Virus record (IMG/VR): IMGVR_UViG_2698536395_000029 | Length of the DNA: 15,001 nucleotides | Strand: one strand, 5' to 3' | Source: a virus | Taxonomy: Duplodnaviria > Heunggongvirae > Uroviricota > Caudoviricetes | Shown here: piece by piece, positions 1,159 through 13,766 of the stretch | How the letters are laid out: each line of letters opens with the position of its first letter | Numbering within the stretch: the stretch's first letter is position 1 | Notes under the pieces: generated by a model | Database searches by the model: none | Told to the model about the DNA's origin: nothing | What the model saw: the letters and a program-made list of their open reading frames with translations, nothing else | Translations under genes and position numbers: made by a program

Positions 1159-2820
1159 TTACACCCCGCTAAATTCTTCCAGTTTCTGGCGGTGGCTGTC
1201 GCTTATATCAAAAGCAAAATCCTCATGCTCTGCCTGGAATGTACCAAACGCCATCAGCGCCGCTACGCTCGGGTCTATCTTGTTCGGTGATTTTTTCTTG
1301 TTCGGCTTGATATTGGCGTTCGCGTCACTCTGCATCACGACGTTACTCATCGACCAGGACAACACCGGATCGCCACGATGCACAATCACCCTGCGGTTAA
1401 CAAAAACTTCGAACGATTTCGCCGCCGGACTGAATCTGAGGTAGGTTTGCGGGAACGGCTCCACCTCAAAACCAGCCCCCTGTAATTGCGTCCTGAGATG
1501 CGTGGCGTTCCACGTATCAAAGCCCACCAGCCTGATATTAAATTTCTCCGCATCCTGCATGATGTCATCTCTGATCCGGTCGTAATCAATGCAGTCACCT
1601 GGCGTTGTGCGTATCCAGCCCGCTTTAGCCCACTGGCGATAGACAGCGCGGTTTTTATTGGCGGGGTTCTGTAGCTGGAACTCCGGCAGATAATGACGGG
1701 AAACCAGCATGATATTTTTACCGACCGGAAAGGCATAGCACACGCTGGAAATATCGCTGGTTGATGATAAGTCCAGCCCCGCGTAACACTCCTGCCCGTG
1801 TAAATCTTCCTCCGTGAACGTTCCGGCACACTCAGCCCATGCGCCGTTACCCATCCACGGGGTAGCCCCCTGGCACCAGATATTAAATCGCTTTGTCATC
1901 ATCTCCACCCACTGCGACGGAATACCCCGCGCTTTCTGGATGGTTGAGGCCAGTTTTTCACGATCGACGGAAACATCAATATTAGGGTTCGCCTTTATCC
2001 ACATCGCCGGATCATCAACCTCGTTTTCGTCGTCCAGCTCGTAAATCAGTACAAAAATTGAATCGTTAACCTCTTCGCCGTCCAGGATCTGGCAGCAATA
2101 ATCATAGTGCTGTTTACAGGCTGAAACGACGTTGCTGCCTGATGTGGTAATGGCAAATAACAGCCCTTCGGGACGTGCGCCCATCCCCAGCTCAAGCGCG
2201 GAATAAACGCCGTTATCGGGGTGCAAGTGGTATTCGTCCACGATGGAAAGGCTTGGGTTTGTTCCCTCGATGGTTGCCGCTTTTGCTGCCAGCGGCTTTA
2301 ACAGGCTGTTGCTTTTCGGGTGTATCACCTTATGCGCCTGAATATTCACCCGCCTGCGTAACGGTCGGGATAAAAGGCACATCTGACGCGCATCATCAAA
2401 GACGATCCGCGCCTGGTCACGGCTCACCGCTGCGGTGTAGATATCCTGCTGACCGTTCTCCATAATCAGAAACCAGTTAGCCAGAATCGCGGCGGTCGTG
2501 GATTTCGCATTTTTGCGCGGCACTTCGATAAAGGCGCTCGTGTATTTGCGCCGTCCGGTGGCCTTAACCTTAAAGCCGAGGATGCACGCAAAGGCGAACT
2601 GCTGCCACGGCTCCAGCTCAATGGGTCTGCCACGCATCGGTCCTTTTACGTGCGGGCACACCCTGGAAAAGGCAATAAACCGCTCCACAACCTCACGATC
2701 GAACGTGTAAAGGGGGCTTTTAAGGTCCGAAAAGTACCGTTTAACGGCCTGTTTCAGCCGTTTACAGGCCGGAATTTTGCCCGTTTTTACGTCTTCTGCG
2801 TACTTATTCCAGGCGGTCAA
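1159..2820 (-). CDS. terL: Terminase large subunit (Terminase_1-like ATPase/nuclease)
   Basis: 553 aa; Walker-A-like PRKNAKST near residue 100; size and position after TerS. Start per ORF track is TTG at 2820, overlapping the TerS stop; next in-frame ATG is ~60 codons in, so the exact start is uncertain. Confidence 0.9.
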   Translation of the reverse strand: MTAWNKYAEDVKTGKIPACKRLKQAVKRYFSDLKSPLYTFDREVVERFIAFSRVCPHVKGPMRGRPIELEPWQQFAFACILGFKVKATGRRKYTSAFIEVPRKNAKSTTAAILANWFLIMENGQQDIYTAAVSRDQARIVFDDARQMCLLSRPLRRRVNIQAHKVIHPKSNSLLKPLAAKAATIEGTNPSLSIVDEYHLHPDNGVYSALELGMGARPEGLLFAITTSGSNVVSACKQHYDYCCQILDGEEVNDSIFVLIYELDDENEVDDPAMWIKANPNIDVSVDREKLASTIQKARGIPSQWVEMMTKRFNIWCQGATPWMGNGAWAECAGTFTEEDLHGQECYAGLDLSSTSDISSVCYAFPVGKNIMLVSRHYLPEFQLQNPANKNRAVYRQWAKAGWIRTTPGDCIDYDRIRDDIMQDAEKFNIRLVGFDTWNATHLRTQLQGAGFEVEPFPQTYLRFSPAAKSFEVFVNRRVIVHRGDPVLSWSMSNVVMQSDANANIKPNKKKSPNKIDPSVAALMAFGTFQAEHEDFAFDISDSHRQKLEEFSGV

Positions 2821-8140: not shown

Positions 8141-8413
8141 TTAGCTGTCCTGGTAATTGCGCCATATTTCATCACCAGCACCATCTATCCCCATTTCGGC
8201 ATAAGTGCGATCGACTGCCTTTTTCAGGTCTCCGTAATTATCCGGTGGCTCCGGTGGCCTCTGTGCCTTCCTGCAACATTCCAGCCGTCGCATCGTAACC
8301 TGATGCCGTTCCTTGTCTGTCTCCACCAGCAGCATGACTTCACCCCATCGCGCCGCCGCCCTCCGGTAAAAGCCTTTCGCCTCGAGTTCTTCCGCTATGC
8401 GGTCATGTACCAT
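8141..8413 (-). CDS. PerC-family-like transcriptional regulator (90 aa)
   Basis: Start taken at ATG 8413 (MVHDRIAEEL) with GAGGGGG SD. The motif AEELEAKGFYRRAAARWGEV...MRRLEC resembles the PerC/Pch signature (A..LE..G.WRRAA..W). From memory. Confidence 0.5.
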   Translation of the reverse strand: MVHDRIAEELEAKGFYRRAAARWGEVMLLVETDKERHQVTMRRLECCRKAQRPPEPPDNYGDLKKAVDRTYAEMGIDGAGDEIWRNYQDS

Positions 8414-9397: not shown

Positions 9398-11152
9398 TTA
9401 TAAAAACGCGTCGCACTCGTCTGTTGTTATTGCGTTAGTCTGCGTTACTCCCTTAACTTTCCGCGTAATATATTCATGTCCGTAAACTTTCGCGGCTGGC
9501 TTCATAGCCTTGCCAAAGTCATTTACGTTTAGCGGTTTGCTCCTGCCTGCGTACGCCATAAACGCCAGATAGACGCGGTAAAGGCTGTTTCTGGTCGTGT
9601 ACTTCACTGAATCGCCACCGCCGCCCATCATCAGGCCGCGTGCTTCCTCCAGAAAATTCAGGAACTGGCAAAACTCAATAACCGGATCCGTCTGTTGCTT
9701 TATTGCCAGAGCTTCATCACCGTCACGCTGTTCCAGTAGTAAAGCCCGTGCCTTCTCAGGGTCGGTAAAGTTCGCCAGCAATCGGCGGATAATGACAGGG
9801 ATTTCAGCCGCGATCTTTTCCGGTAGCTCCCTGTCTTTTTCGGCCTCACTGACGATATTGTCGAAACGGAAAATCACGCGACGACGTGCCACACCTCCGG
9901 CCCGTTCGGTGAATATCATCGGGTTATTGTTGGTCGCCAGCACCACCGCCCTGATTACAGCCGTGAAACGCTTTTCGTATTTCGGGTTAATTTCCACGGG
10001 GTCACCGCCCGTGATTTTCTTGATGCCCGTTCCTTCGCCTGTATATTTCGGCTGGTCAGCCAGGACGATAAGACGACTCCCGACAACCTGCGCACGTCCA
10101 CCAGCATCATCAAGCGATGTCATTTCAGCGCTTACCGTGTTCTGTTTCCCTGCCAGAAGGCTGGCTATGTGCGTGAATGTACTTTTACCGCTCCCGCCGT
10201 CTCCGGTGGCCTCAATAAACATCTGCCAGTCGTACCGGTTCGCCATAATCATGTACAGCGCGGCACATATACGCATCATCTTGCGCGGGTCTTTTCCGGC
10301 TGCGTGCTCAAGCCATTTATGAAAGTTTGGCGCGTTATCGCGGATGTTCTCCCCTGGTGCTGGTGGCGTGTACTCAATGCCGTTGTGCGTGGTGATCCAG
10401 TTCTCCGGCGTGTGCGGGGAAAATTCCCCCGTTTTCAGGTCAAGCGCACCATTGGCGAACGGCAGCAAATCGCCGGACGGCTCGCCCATTGGTTCGGCAA
10501 TAACTTTTAACGCTTCCACGGCGTTATTGATTACGCGCTTGCTGAAAGTGGCCCTGTGCTCTGAATAGATCGCCACCATTTCGCGGCTAAGTTCCATTGT
10601 GCTGACCGGACACCATACCCCGCCGCGCCATACGTGAACGATTTCACTTTCAGGATGTACGCAAACGCCATCAAAGCGATCGGCAAGCAGCTGCGCGCGC
10701 TCACTGTCCGCCATCTGCGAAAGTTGCGCCTTTTGCTTTACCGGAAGCTCAATGACCAGACCATCAGAAAGATTCTGGCGCTCACGAGCCAGATATTCGC
10801 GCCAGTTCTCCACCTTCTGACCGTGCATACCATCAGGGTAAAAATTTGCATCCTGTACGCCTGCCGCCGCCAGCTTCTGACCAATCGCCTTTATCATTAC
10901 TGGCGCAAGATATCCGGCCCTGAATATGCGCACGGATTTTCTGCCTTCCGGCACAATTTGCAGCTTATCCAGTTCGGATAACTGCTGCTCCCCAAGCCAC
11001 ACAGGAGGCTCATTATCTCCGGCCATACGCGCGTCATGTTCCTGCCATTGTTTTGCGTGTGACCAGGCATCACTACCCGCAAAAATAATGACTTCTGTTT
11101 CTTTGTGTTTTATGCCGCGTGACTGCTGTTTTACGTTCGGTGCCAGTTTCAT
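9398..11152 (-). CDS. Primase/helicase replication protein (P4-alpha-like; D5-type NTPase C-terminal domain)
   Basis: 584 aa; Walker A GDGGSGKST at ~residue 318 with the surrounding D5/P4-family helicase context; N-terminal primase-like region; iteron origin immediately downstream. Confidence 0.85.
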   Translation of the reverse strand: MKLAPNVKQQSRGIKHKETEVIIFAGSDAWSHAKQWQEHDARMAGDNEPPVWLGEQQLSELDKLQIVPEGRKSVRIFRAGYLAPVMIKAIGQKLAAAGVQDANFYPDGMHGQKVENWREYLARERQNLSDGLVIELPVKQKAQLSQMADSERAQLLADRFDGVCVHPESEIVHVWRGGVWCPVSTMELSREMVAIYSEHRATFSKRVINNAVEALKVIAEPMGEPSGDLLPFANGALDLKTGEFSPHTPENWITTHNGIEYTPPAPGENIRDNAPNFHKWLEHAAGKDPRKMMRICAALYMIMANRYDWQMFIEATGDGGSGKSTFTHIASLLAGKQNTVSAEMTSLDDAGGRAQVVGSRLIVLADQPKYTGEGTGIKKITGGDPVEINPKYEKRFTAVIRAVVLATNNNPMIFTERAGGVARRRVIFRFDNIVSEAEKDRELPEKIAAEIPVIIRRLLANFTDPEKARALLLEQRDGDEALAIKQQTDPVIEFCQFLNFLEEARGLMMGGGGDSVKYTTRNSLYRVYLAFMAYAGRSKPLNVNDFGKAMKPAAKVYGHEYITRKVKGVTQTNAITTDECDAFL

Positions 11153-11913: not shown

Positions 11914-12145
11914 AACCACCCCCATTTTCACAATCAGCAATCAGGATGGCTTTAGCCTCATTCAGCGCCATATCAGCACTAAGTTGCATAACCGCCAGCG
12001 AATGAGGAACGAAAGCCCCGGCATATTCTGTTTCACTGGTGTCGTGCTTATGCGCCCTGTCAGCAATAACAGAAATATCAATCAGCGCATGCATTAGCGT
12101 TATGATGGCTTCGGCGGCTGCGTCCGGACGGGTGTTATTGCACAT
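11906..12145 (-). CDS. Hypothetical protein (79 aa)
   Basis: ATG at 12145 preceded by CAGGAGG; overlaps the stop of the 68-aa gene. Confidence 0.5.
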   Translation of the reverse strand: MCNNTRPDAAAEAIITLMHALIDISVIADRAHKHDTSETEYAGAFVPHSLAVMQLSADMALNEAKAILIADCENGGGYA

Positions 12146-12341
12146 GGCACACCTCCTGACGAATACGGGCAGCGAATACCATCACGCAGCCAGCCGGAGA
12201 TTGCTGGCGTGCTTCCTGTTCGCTGGTGGCCTCAATGGTAATCACGCGCGGTTGTGCCGTGCTCAGGGCGATAAAACGCCAGATGTATTTATTCAGGTCG
12301 TGCGAGTCCCGCCCTTGCGGGTGTGTGGTATGATTTCTCAT
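12135..12341 (-). CDS. Hypothetical protein (68 aa); first gene of the replication operon, possibly Icd-like
   Basis: ATG at 12341 with GAGGT SD. It is the only plausible part of the 342-aa track ORF; the upstream 274 codons are Cys/Arg/Ser-rich antisense of real plus-strand genes. The motif YIWRFIALS...EARQQ...VFAAR vaguely recalls Icd-like proteins (low confidence). Confidence 0.5.
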   Translation of the reverse strand: MRNHTTHPQGRDSHDLNKYIWRFIALSTAQPRVITIEATSEQEARQQSPAGCVMVFAARIRQEVCHVQ

Positions 12342-12379
12342 AGCTACCTCGATACTTTCGCTATCGTTGGTGGTTAGAA

Positions 12380-12410
12380 GCCCTGCGAGTGGTAACGACA
12401 CTTGCGGGGC
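12380..12410. promoter_or_regulatory. Imperfect 12-bp inverted repeat in the divergent control region
   Basis: GCCCTGCGAGTG-gtaacga-CACTTGCGGGGC (10/12 complementary at DNA level); lies in the 5' leader of the minus-strand operon. Confidence 0.45.
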
Positions 12411-12438
12411 TTTGCATTTATGCACCTTGATAATCTCA

Positions 12439-12474
12439 AGGTGTGGCCCACTATATGCTTTAGGTGTGGCCCAC
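12439..12474. promoter_or_regulatory. Two exact 13-bp direct repeats AGGTGTGGCCCAC (candidate operator) overlapping a sigma70-like promoter
   Basis: Copies at 12439-12451 and 12462-12474, 23 bp apart; TTGATA at 12427-12432 and TATACT at 12506-12511 are plausible promoter hexamers upstream of the gene starting at 12541. Confidence 0.5.
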
Positions 12475-12540
12475 GTCAAGGGTTTTATTTGTGCTTTTTC
12501 TGTGTATACTGTCCCCCACCAATCCAACAGAGGAATAGAA

Positions 12541-12720
12541 ATGGCAACGGGTACAACAAACGCAAAATCACAAGCTCTAAAGGCTCGTGTACCACACGAA
12601 ATAGTAAACGCCATGGAATCAGTGAAAGAATCAGGCGAAAGCACATCACAATTCATCATTGCGTCAATGCAAGGCGAGATCAAACGCCGCCAGCGCCGCA
12701 AGGCCAAAGAATCAGAATAA
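12541..12720 (+). CDS. Small DNA-binding protein, probable ribbon-helix-helix fold (59 aa)
   Basis: ATG at 12541 with AGAGGAA SD. The pattern LKARVPHEIVNAMESVKESGESTSQFIIASMQGEI (strand, helix, G-S/T turn, helix) and a basic tail fit CopG/Arc-type RHH proteins. Confidence 0.55.
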   Translation: MATGTTNAKSQALKARVPHEIVNAMESVKESGESTSQFIIASMQGEIKRRQRRKAKESE

Positions 12721-12762
12721 TCACTATCAGCGCCGTGGTGTGAGGTATTACGGCGCATTGCT

Positions 12763-12951
12763 ATGCAGGACAACACAATGACCGATAAAGAATTGACCAA
12801 AACATTATCACCGGCACGGAAAAGACGGCGCAGAAAGATAGAACATGAATCAGAAAGATTCGCGCCATGTGCTTTTGCCCTTGAGCAATTCCTTAAAGAG
12901 TACAGGGAAAAGCGCTCATTGCAGGTATGGCAACGAACTGAACCAGACTGA
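12763..12951 (+). CDS. Hypothetical basic protein (62 aa; start may be 12778)
   Basis: ORF 43 nt downstream of the RHH gene on the same strand, with a poly-basic stretch ARKRRRRK; the SD is weak, so coding status is uncertain. Confidence 0.4.
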   Translation: MQDNTMTDKELTKTLSPARKRRRRKIEHESERFAPCAFALEQFLKEYREKRSLQVWQRTEPD

Positions 12952-13036
12952 TTGCATTGCCCACCAGCCTGATAGCGGCTATCATCCCCGTGCTTATGTT
13001 TGGGATCACACACACAAACGGCGCAGCGGGTTATCT

Positions 13037-13064
13037 GTTCAGAAAGGCGGCTCCATTTCGGGGC
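13037..13064 (+). terminator. Rho-independent terminator ending the plus-strand RHH operon
   Basis: GCGGCTCC-atttc-GGGGCCGC (8-bp stem with one G-U pair) followed by T7. Confidence 0.75.
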
Positions 13065-13220
13065 CGCTTTTTTTATGCCTGAAAAACCCCAATTTTGTGG
13101 TTTTCCAGTCTCACCAGGGCGAACGAATCCCCGCCCACGTTCTGGCGTATATTCAATCTTCATGGTTATAGCTCTGTGTTCAGATGATTGATGTGTGGCG
13201 GCTGTGTGCCGCCAGCGTGA

Positions 13221-13409
13221 TTAATGAACTGCCTTGCAGCTATCCTTCCAGGCCAGAACCTCGGATAAAGACCAGCCAACGGAACGACCGCCAAGTTTAC
13301 GACGTGATGGGAATTGTCCGGCCTTTTCCAGGCGGTAGCGGCATGAGCGGCTAAGGCCTGTTAGCTTTTCGCATTCTTTTTCACGTATAAACCGATCAGT
13401 GCTTAACAC
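13221..13409 (-). CDS. alpA: AlpA-family transcriptional regulator / excisionase-like HTH protein
   Basis: 62 aa; LTGLSRSCRYRLEKAGQFPSRRKLGGRSVGWSLSEVLAW matches the AlpA signature (TGLSRST.YR....G.FP.P.KLG.R.V.W...EV..W). Start is GTG at 13409 with AAGGGGG SD. Confidence 0.85.
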   Translation of the reverse strand: MLSTDRFIREKECEKLTGLSRSCRYRLEKAGQFPSRRKLGGRSVGWSLSEVLAWKDSCKAVH

Positions 13410-13568
13410 TATTGCCCCCTTTCGTTTCTTAAAGAGTTATTTCGTGTTCTATTGCGTTGGGATGTGTCTGATTGTGTCAGGATGATTCAGAGTTGGCAAA
13501 TGTTGAGGTCGTATGGTTTACAGAAACAGGAATAATCAGGATAAAATCATTTAAATTCATGTTAATAC

Positions 13569-13600
13569 AAAGGCATAAAATATTGTTTCATGCCTTTTTT
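13569..13600 (+). terminator. Terminator-like hairpin on the plus strand in the int-alpA intergenic region
   Basis: AAAGGCAT-(13-nt loop)-ATGCCTTT followed by TTTTTTCTC; no plus-strand gene upstream, so function unclear. Confidence 0.3.
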
Positions 13601-13692
13601 CTCGCCATTTAAAGAGTGATTCGCTAGTGTATAAAAAACCAGTAACACATTAAAAATCAGCCACTTATAAATCCGTACACTTTTTCGCCTCT

Positions 13693-13737
13693 TGTTCGTA
13701 GTTGTTCCGCATTGTTGCTCATTGTTGCATGTTGTAT
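13693..13737 (-). promoter_or_regulatory. Array of four to five TTGTT[C/G] hexamers at exact 10-bp phasing (minus strand GAACAA/CAACAA)
   Basis: Hexamers at 13693, 13703, 13713, 13723 and a degenerate one at 13732; about 285-330 bp upstream of alpA and 50-90 bp downstream of the int stop. Confidence 0.55.
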
Positions 13738-13750
13738 CTGTTCGCATATC

Positions 13751-13766
13751 CAGTATGCGCATACTG
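13751..13766. promoter_or_regulatory. 16-bp perfect palindrome CAGTATGCGCATACTG
   Basis: Exact dyad symmetry 18 bp downstream of the int stop; no U-run on the int strand, so more likely an operator than a terminator. Confidence 0.45.

Follow-up and report, generated by a model that had tools for sequence, protein, structure and literature searches.

The DNA analysed here is a 15,001-nt window (the whole stretch, numbered from its first letter) from the viral record IMGVR_UViG_2698536395_000029 of IMG/VR and, judged from its gene content, is a capsid-forming phage-inducible chromosomal island (cf-PICI) related to EcCIO42 and partly to the satellite P4. Within it, a 199-bp gap at 12342-12540 separates the ATG of a minus-strand Icd-like gene (12341) from that of a small plus-strand gene (12541). 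This gap is probably the switch of a P4-related cf-PICI, built on a ribbon-helix-helix (RHH) repressor with three binding sites, together with putative antisense-RNA and read-through layers. In the mechanism that we propose, the divergently encoded 59-amino-acid protein of the YlcI/YnfO family would be the RHH repressor and would recognize 11-bp GTG-N5-CAC sites, here GTGTGGCCCAC. Occupancy of two such sites, O1 and O2, at the start site and in the spacer of a minus-strand promoter, P(-), would keep the island silent, P(-) being the predicted driver of the Icd/Kil-like gene and of the overlapping replication genes as far as the primase gene. A third site, O3, on the -10 and start of the repressor's own promoter would provide negative autoregulation and would be weaker than O1 and O2 in the window, while the central 5 bp of the sites and the N-terminal arm and beta-strand of the protein would set many specificity (immunity) types. 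As further layers, the Icd/Kil-like gene would have its ribosome-binding site and start codon covered by a SymR-like plus-strand RNA, and helper-induced, AlpA-dependent transcription may be read and translated through the switch, bypassing the repressor and running antisense to its gene. Computation gave the sites at their fixed positions, the co-variation of protein and operator, the RHH fold, the RNA covariation with its strand bias and the depletion of stop codons in one frame; from these we infer binding, repression, RNA expression and read-through.

The sequence-only reading had described two exact 13-bp direct repeats in this gap, overlapping a plausible promoter, and both features were found. 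The repeats (AGGTGTGGCCCAC) lie at 12439-12451 and 12462-12474, 23 bp from start to start and with 10 bp between them, and have no further exact copy in the 15-kb window. When the longest non-overlapping exact direct repeat was recorded in 5000 dinucleotide-preserving shuffles of the 199 bp, a repeat of 13 nt was never obtained, the maximum being 12 nt, in four shuffles. The promoter overlapped by the repeats, P(-), is sigma-70-like and is read on the minus strand (12450-12479), with TTGACG (12479-12474) and TATAGT (12455-12450) separated by 18 nt and 10 of 12 matches. Two identical operators of sequence GTGTGGCCCAC are predicted here: O1 (12441-12451) overlaps the final 2 nt of the minus-strand -10 and the predicted start site, and O2 (12464-12474) abuts the -35 and fills the spacer. 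A third predicted operator, O3 (CTGTCCCCCAC, 12509-12519), had been missed by that reading. It is degenerate, with 3 of 11 positions different from O1 and O2 in the window, and overlaps the -10 and start of the repressor's own promoter, P(+), covering the final two bases of its -10, TATACT (12505-12510, plus strand).

These promoter elements recur in related loci. In 52 of 57 distinct loci the best-scoring minus-strand promoter had its -35 (TTGAnG) in the same place, abutting O2, GTATACT was conserved at a fixed distance to the ATG in most loci, and TATACT was the commonest best-scoring plus-strand -10 (20/57 loci). The geometry of O1, O2 and O3 is as would be expected for repression of the operon promoter combined with negative autoregulation. 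An 8-bp perfect inverted repeat (CACCTTGA/TCAAGGTG, 12423-12443), whose right arm overlaps O1, was also found to recur in many loci, and in loci whose O1 has the opposite orientation to O2 and O3 the site is a 17-bp palindrome, AAGGTG-N5-CACCTT. The CACCTTGA/TCAAGGTG repeat might serve as an extended operator or form a hairpin at the 5' end of the P(-) transcript.

The comparison set consisted of four Escherichia coli variants and 59 loci from other Enterobacterales, with genera that include Xenorhabdus, Pectobacterium, Serratia, Yersinia, Citrobacter, Proteus, Morganella and Hafnia. Recognizable pieces of the same arrangement (int, alpA, the Icd-like gene and, further along, the primase gene on the minus strand, with the RHH gene on the plus strand between alpA and the Icd-like gene) were present in at least 40 of the 59 loci. 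Over the 150 nt preceding the RHH ATG the elements followed a constant order: leader hairpins, O1, the minus-strand -10 (TAnnnT), O2, (G/T/C)TCAA (the minus-strand -35, TTGAnG), a T-rich tract, GTATACT, O3, the ribosome-binding site and the ATG. In almost all loci, an unbiased repeat search put the three copies near -100 (or -111), -76 and -31 relative to the ATG, and the 9-mer core of O3 at -31 matched O1/O2 of its own locus.

Across about 60 loci the sites conformed to GTG-N5-CAC with constant arms, and the central 5 bp fell into about 20 classes tracking the protein. Residues 9-18 of the sequence KSQALKARVP or KSQSLKSRVP were paired with the operator GTGTGGCCCAC, KSKKLEARVP with GTGTCAGCCAC, KSQMTTVRIP with GTGAAATACAC, KSQQLNARFP with GTGAATCGCAC, KSLQVSVRLP with GTGAACACCAC, KSKRFDVRVP with TGTCGGACAC and KSQKMSARVP with CTGGCACCCA, and additional operator classes showed the same pattern of pairing with these residues. 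Pairs of loci whose decapeptides were at most one residue apart shared 87% (O2) and 92% (O3) of the positions of the operator core, against 27% and 31%, approximately the chance level, for all other pairs, and identity of the neighbouring spacer in the same two groups was 70% versus 57%; the loci are related by descent, and these statistics overstate their independence. Protein positions 4-6, 11-15 and 17 were almost fully set by the operator class, and positions 27, 31 and 54-56 much less so. The former make up the N-terminal arm and the predicted beta-strand, the element through which RHH proteins read bases. Moreover, the same protein type and the same core were paired in different genera despite diverged flanks. 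The window and E. coli 042 were 98-99% identical rightwards of about codon 44 of the RHH gene and 55-65% identical across its N-terminal part and the operator block, with the three sites changed together, a pattern such as a swapped cassette would be expected to leave. The comparative evidence for a repressor-operator module, in which the RHH protein would bind these sites, is strong. At the level of sequence, the earlier proposal that an RHH protein controls this gap is therefore upheld, since arm and beta-strand co-vary with the operator core in about 20 classes and sites lie on both promoters.

The same comparisons bear on whether the repeats bind another island protein, as primase iterons, AlpA sites or integrase arm sites. 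Repeats of this short kind, when close to replication genes, are frequently iterons, and AlpA is the known activator. Nevertheless, the cores follow the RHH beta-strand; the window and 042 share 99% of Int and 98% of AlpA, yet their repeat cores differ; 042 and the O157 locus share replication genes, yet their repeats and RHH proteins are unrelated; and the window and Dryocola (L006) share repeat and RHH type without detectable similarity in Icd or primase. Binding by another island protein is on these grounds highly improbable, and the iteron, AlpA-site and integrase-arm-site readings were all rejected because the repeats track neither Int nor AlpA nor the replication proteins.

A different protein occupies the position of the YlcI/YnfO gene in the EcCIEDL933-type locus of E. 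coli O157:H7 NE92 (L002). An unannotated Arc-like RHH protein of 57 amino acids is encoded there (2238-2408, plus strand), matching PHROG 228 at 1.5e-6, and the site at this locus is a perfect 14-bp palindrome, ATGGTAATTACCAT, adjoining the conserved GTCAA.

The repressor candidate of the window (12541-12720, plus strand, 59 amino acids) belongs to the YlcI/YnfO family, matching NCBIfam NF041551 at 67.4 bits (cutoff 30), and the variant of 700481 also matched Pfam DUF3950 (28.3 bits, cutoff 25). Its product appears to have a ribbon-helix-helix fold, as a confident structural model, computed as a monomer, consisted of an N-terminal beta-strand followed by two helices. Pfam gave no match for the window's small protein alone, and across family members only sub-threshold RHH matches, to CB_ParB_C in 10 of 40 (best 3e-4) and also to PSK_trans_fac, Arc, HicB_lk_antitox and RHH_5. 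A PDB sequence-profile search with the small protein gave no match, nor did tblastn against 50,697 phage records, and PHROGs lists the family as of unknown function. Only 90 cluster representatives among 1.84 billion proteins matched the YlcI/YnfO profile, so the family is small.

Its namesake, ynfO of E. coli K-12 (L066:2757-2990), lies outside satellites, in the Qin prophage between cos/nohA and the ydfO/lysis region. No comparable triple site was seen upstream of K-12 ynfO, and the operator layout would therefore be a feature of the satellite subfamily, one specialized use of the family.

Downstream of the RHH gene, the window contains a small open reading frame (ORF) coding for a basic protein, ORF2 (12778-12951, plus strand; MTDKELTKTLSPARKRRRRKIEHESERF...), which matches PHROG 21027, a group without known function. 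Among the E. coli variants its conservation is 81-100%; it is absent from the PGAP annotation and sits in the shadow frame of the long minus-strand ORF described below. The RHH protein and ORF2 might be taken for antitoxin and toxin of a type II pair, the repeats merely autoregulating that pair. This is very unlikely, as tblastn detected ORF2 in the four E. coli comparison loci only and in none of the 59 genome-scan loci, and in Xenorhabdus the RHH gene directly precedes a convergent alpA. Furthermore, two of the three sites lie on the divergent promoter rather than on that of the RHH gene, and the 59-amino-acid protein is without a C-terminal toxin-binding extension.

As a repressor with operators between divergent promoters, the RHH module can be compared with two classical immunity regions. 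The immI region of phage P22 encodes the RHH repressors Mnt and Arc, the divergent promoters Pant and Pmnt and the antisense RNA sar. Both regions have small RHH repressors, in the island a candidate one, on operators that overlap closely spaced divergent promoters, and in both the first gene of the regulated operon is, or in the island would be, additionally controlled by a short cis-antisense RNA. The island differs in having one RHH gene where P22 has two, three 11-bp GTG-N5-CAC sites, a repressor of the YlcI/YnfO family instead of Arc/Mnt, and a predicted target that is a satellite kil/replication operon and not an antirepressor gene; in addition, the repressor gene would lie antisense within a translated frame. 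At the lambda OR region, three operators are located between the divergent promoters PR and PRM. Here the likeness lies in three related sites, two on the lytic-type promoter and one, weaker in the window, on the repressor's own, and in many specificity types exchanged as cassettes between near-identical elements. Unlike in lambda, the candidate repressor of the island is an RHH and not a helix-turn-helix protein, with no sign of a Cro-like partner, a cleavage domain or a link to SOS.

The first gene of the operon downstream of P(-) is the Icd/Kil-like gene (12135-12341, minus strand, 68 amino acids), which matched NF033153 at 1.5e-19. According to the ORF list and the annotation, the genes that follow it overlap one another as far as the primase gene (9398-11152), so P(-) would control at least the replication module. 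The sequence-only reading had extended repression to a replication/packaging operon; these overlaps support only the replication part, as far as the primase gene, and not control of the packaging genes further downstream.

The leader of this operon contains the inverted repeat reported earlier as a 12-bp imperfect one, which proved to be longer, with 14-nt arms at 12378-12391 and 12399-12412 that are 86% complementary and that pair at 14 of 14 positions on the plus strand when G-U pairs are allowed. It corresponds to a terminator-like stem-loop, SL1 (12378-12412, plus strand), which is followed by a U-rich tail and connected through a conserved linker, (G)TTGTGGTTAGA, to a second conserved leader stem-loop, SL2 (12350-12366, plus strand). 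Several computations favoured the plus strand: the consensus fold reached -27.3 kcal/mol versus -7.6 kcal/mol on the minus strand, with 22 predicted pairs (17 of them with compensatory changes) versus 13, and G-U combinations numbered 28 versus 3 in the core pairs and 57 versus 1 in five extra pairs. In the window, 12338-12428 folded at -41.6 kcal/mol with a z-score of -6.8. Structure, covariation and strand bias together describe two hairpins that are antisense to a ribosome-binding site and AUG and end in a terminator, which is the layout of SymR. Our reading is therefore that the leader hairpin, rather than being an operator, terminates a SymR-like candidate cis-antisense RNA (12336-12428, plus strand), which would overlie the Icd/Kil-like gene at its ribosome-binding site and AUG. 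An attenuator on the minus strand was rejected, as that strand has C-A mismatches and no U-tract.

The resemblance was also detected with covariance models. Rfam symR (RF01809) aligned full-length on the plus strand in the loci L010, L015 and L030 with 32-35 bits, and a model built from the satellite sequences, R1, recovered the annotated symR of K-12 at the right place and on the right strand with 32.9 bits. With R1 the window (12336-12428) scored 66 bits and the EcCIEDL933-type locus 54 bits, and P4 gave no match. The 5' end of symE is overlapped by SymR, a cis-antisense RNA with a promoter located within the reading frame of symE (PMC1891008). By analogy, a possible extended -10 for the island RNA, TGGTATGAT (12326-12334, plus strand), can be read from the sequence within the first codons of the Icd-like gene, and a TGn-TAnnnT motif occurs at the equivalent place in other loci, as weak evidence confounded by coding constraint. 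In SymE-SymR (PMC1891008), as for the candidate RNA of the island, a two-hairpin RNA is antisense to the 5' untranslated region, ribosome-binding site and AUG, its promoter would sit in the first codons of the target, and the covariance-model matches are reciprocal. The differences are the scores of 32-35 bits against a threshold of 61, an Icd/Kil-like target in place of the AbrB-fold SymE, and the fact that no LexA control is evident.

On the minus strand, the Icd/Kil-like gene is the in-frame end of a much longer frame of 342 amino acids (12135-13163), which is eta-like, begins 58 nt past the alpA stop and spans the entire switch. It runs antisense to ORF2 and to the RHH gene, with coinciding wobble positions. 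From within the first minus-strand gene to beyond the RHH stop this frame was free of stops in 47 of 60 loci, over 179-413 codons, and the other two minus-strand frames of the same loci were interrupted every few codons. Over 59 distinct 186-nt intergenic sequences, 33 stops were counted in this frame versus 320 and 308 in the others, in neither of which any locus was stop-free. PGAP labels the 5' part of the frame as a pseudogene. Cys, Ser and Arg are abundant in the predicted product, whose only family match is that of the nested C-terminal Icd-like domain, the part upstream giving none; selection therefore seems to be limited to keeping the frame open. In L002 the long minus-strand frame is likewise open through the Arc-like RHH gene (323 codons) and is annotated by PGAP as an incomplete Icd-like pseudogene.

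An open frame under selection to stay open, part of which PGAP annotates, could mean that the small plus-strand gene is itself only a shadow ORF of the long minus-strand gene and that the repeats are coding features of the latter. We give this hardly any credence. The small protein belongs to a curated family found elsewhere, K-12 YnfO being an example, and has a confident RHH model and invariant residues; its gene has a ribosome-binding site and a conserved -10. It is the long-frame product that is Cys/Ser/Arg-rich and without a family match upstream.

The nested arrangement has a precedent in P4, where Kil (65 amino acids) is the C-terminal part of Eta (199 amino acids), eta begins upstream of PLE and just past the alpA homologue, and transcripts that start at the upstream late promoter escape termination through the translation of eta (PMC10111431). 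P4 Kil matched the NF033153 Icd-like model at 1.6e-21. This link comes from the NCBIfam hidden Markov model: direct tblastn of the Icd-like protein against P4 gave no match, and against the phage records it returned one satellite-like record only, P4 not being among the matches. The island shares with P4 an Icd/Kil-like gene of the NCBIfam family of P4 Kil nested at the end of a long frame that begins just past the alpA/vis homologue and holds an internal promoter, as well as an alpha-type primase, and the preservation of the open frame fits a protection of read-through transcripts by translation (PMC10111431). It differs in the immunity factor: P4, whose left operon is controlled from PLE within eta and PLL upstream, uses the CI RNA with seqA, seqB and seqC, whereas that of the island appears to be a protein repressor with predicted operators, plus the SymR-like RNA. 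Rfam C4 and isrK were found in P4 and, in the same search, not in the window or eight related loci. The island also has its own HK97-type capsid and terminase genes, and sid, psu and delta are not annotated in the identical RefSeq record, nor was a suggestive Pfam match found among the ORFs scanned. The module looks like a protein-based replacement of the P4 RNA immunity inside a P4-like architecture, supplemented by an RHH switch of the P22 immI kind and by a SymR-like RNA.

The gene upstream of the long frame and co-oriented with it is alpA (13221-13409, minus strand, 62 amino acids; Pfam PF05930, 5e-18). AlpA activates downstream genes in EcCICFT073, and induction of EcCIEDL933 requires it, as an alpA mutation alone abolishes induction (10.1101/2022.09.08.507074). 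AlpA-driven read-through would give a route into the operon that is insensitive to the repressor, and we consider AlpA-dependent read-through likelier as the release of the switch than inactivation of the RHH protein by a helper protein. An analogy with antitermination by the Pseudomonas-type AlpA was not adopted, as homology of the two AlpA proteins is not established.

The premise of the earlier reading, that Gram-negative PICIs are AlpA-activated without a dedicated repressor, agrees with the literature: transcription is described as running in one direction and activated by AlpA, the existence of a repressor is called unclear, and the contrast with the Stl-controlled Gram-positive islands is called a mystery (PMC6092414). 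P4-type immunity RNAs have been described in some elements in work on helper-embedded PICIs (PMC10111431), and the literature searched yielded no account of RHH or YlcI/YnfO regulators for PICIs or cf-PICIs. As with the master repressors Stl/Rpr of Gram-positive PICIs (SaPIs, pathogenicity islands of Staphylococcus aureus), the repressor gene is divergent from the replication/packaging operon, but the island protein is unrelated in family and size. The suggestion of a distinct control logic holds in that a candidate protein repressor is present. It does not hold in the sense of a replacement of AlpA, as the switch would operate inside a P4-like kil/eta architecture.

The requirement for AlpA admits a narrower role for the RHH protein, in which it would be, together with the antisense RNA, a local safeguard of a toxic Icd/Kil-like gene, with AlpA alone responsible for induction. 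Icd/Kil-like proteins are toxic, P4 Kil causing cell killing (PMC10111431), the leader RNA resembles the type I antitoxin SymR, and induction of EcCIEDL933 is abolished by the alpA mutation alone. However, the gene overlaps are unbroken from the Icd-like gene to the primase gene, and repression of P(-) would therefore necessarily repress the replication genes transcribed from it. Moreover, a divergent layout with three operators and many types resembles immunity regions more than toxin-antitoxin operators. We thus regard a purely local safeguard as unlikely, although it deserves serious consideration, and favour the RHH protein as the repressor of the island's switch.

Several further observations weigh against this switch, in whole or in some of its layers. 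The long frame is broken in 13 of the 60 loci, 042 and E02 having stops within the intergenic region, and read-through translation is therefore not indispensable everywhere. The EcCIEDL933-type locus is without a good P(-), no good minus-strand -10 being visible there. P(+) is without a recognizable or conserved -35 and is preceded only by the T-rich tract. Autoregulation may be weak in the window, because its O3 differs from O1 and O2 at the 3 of 11 positions mentioned above; in Dryocola, whose protein is of the same type as that of the window, O3 has one position different. The symR matches were below the gathering threshold (61 bits), and none was obtained for the window sequence itself. 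Finally, heteroimmunity predicts that elements residing in the same genome differ in type. Indeed, none of 16 pairs from genomes with two to four elements (Xenorhabdus innexi, with L016, L041, L043 and L053, and eight other genomes) shared the RHH/operator type, but this difference was not significant (permutation P = 0.15) and was not used as evidence.

As to the island as a whole, the window was 100% identical to a chromosome segment of E. coli strain 20.1 and spans nearly all of an island of about 15 kb inserted in tqsA, between the two tqsA halves. Its gene content was read from Pfam matches and from the annotation of the identical RefSeq record. On the minus strand, int, alpA (PF05930) and the Icd-like gene are followed by the chain of overlapping small genes, the D5_N primase, a single-stranded DNA-binding protein and a PerC-like gene, then by HK97-type capsid, protease and portal genes, head-completion and connector genes, HNH, TerS and TerL. 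A length of about 15 kb, the presence of int, alpA, primase and an own set from capsid to TerL, and the absence of tail genes correspond to the gene set that defines capsid-forming PICIs, as described for EcCIEDL933; helper-phage induction via alpA and packaging in own small capsids with helper tails were shown for EcCIEDL933 only (10.1101/2022.09.08.507074). The primase was 40% identical to P4 alpha. E. coli 042 carries a relative at the same tqsA site, with an integrase 99% and an AlpA 98% identical to those of the window, which is probably the published EcCIO42 (PMC6092414).

The TerL gene (1160-2820, minus strand) is a frameshifted pseudogene according to the annotation of the identical RefSeq record; in the letters of the window it is a single ORF of 553 amino acids with a TTG start and both TerL domains, and this island copy might or might not be competent for DNA packaging. 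A PerC-family regulator with a weak ANR-family match is encoded at 8141-8413 (minus strand), between the replication and capsid modules; a related gene in EcCIMP1 is reported to repress expression of the locus of enterocyte effacement (PMC11773190). An ORF of 66 amino acids between int and alpA (13562-13762, minus strand), absent from PGAP, gave a weak match to the treble-clef DUF2116 (E = 0.0015). The int-alpA RNA motif of Rfam (RF02996) was above the gathering score at L010:5966-6038, L024:5461-5529 and L030:847-913 (minus strand), and the window gave no match to this motif, even at E <= 1.

Of 5426 complete E. coli genomes, 457 carried the switch with the RHH gene at ≥80% query coverage and 1520 gave partial matches, and the repressor candidate also occurs in many genera of Enterobacterales and in the 042 island at the same site. 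The ingredients are each of a known kind, and what would be new is their combination, the PICI/cf-PICI setting and a repressor gene lying antisense within a frame that is kept open. As a tentative extension, of which we are less than convinced, many Gram-negative PICIs and cf-PICIs might share an undescribed three-layer switch consisting of a YlcI/YnfO RHH repressor on three operators, in about 20 exchangeable types that act as heteroimmune groups, a SymR-like RNA guarding the toxic Icd/Kil-like gene, and a frame kept for translation only, whose reading by helper-induced, AlpA-driven transcription bypasses and silences the repressor. If true, such a switch would explain how AlpA-dependent islands stay silent and then commit to induction.

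The window thus offers a concrete repressor candidate for Gram-negative PICIs, which were previously not thought to have a protein repressor, and a first functional proposal for the YlcI/YnfO (DUF3950) family. It also links PICI control to the kil/eta read-through logic of P4, and the natural pairs of operator and protein constitute a set from which an RHH recognition code may be read. One stretch of DNA would encode a repressor on one strand and, on the other, a frame open solely for translation. If the specificity types are immunity groups, they would shape the coexistence and cross-regulation of satellites, which matters for engineered PICI "drones".

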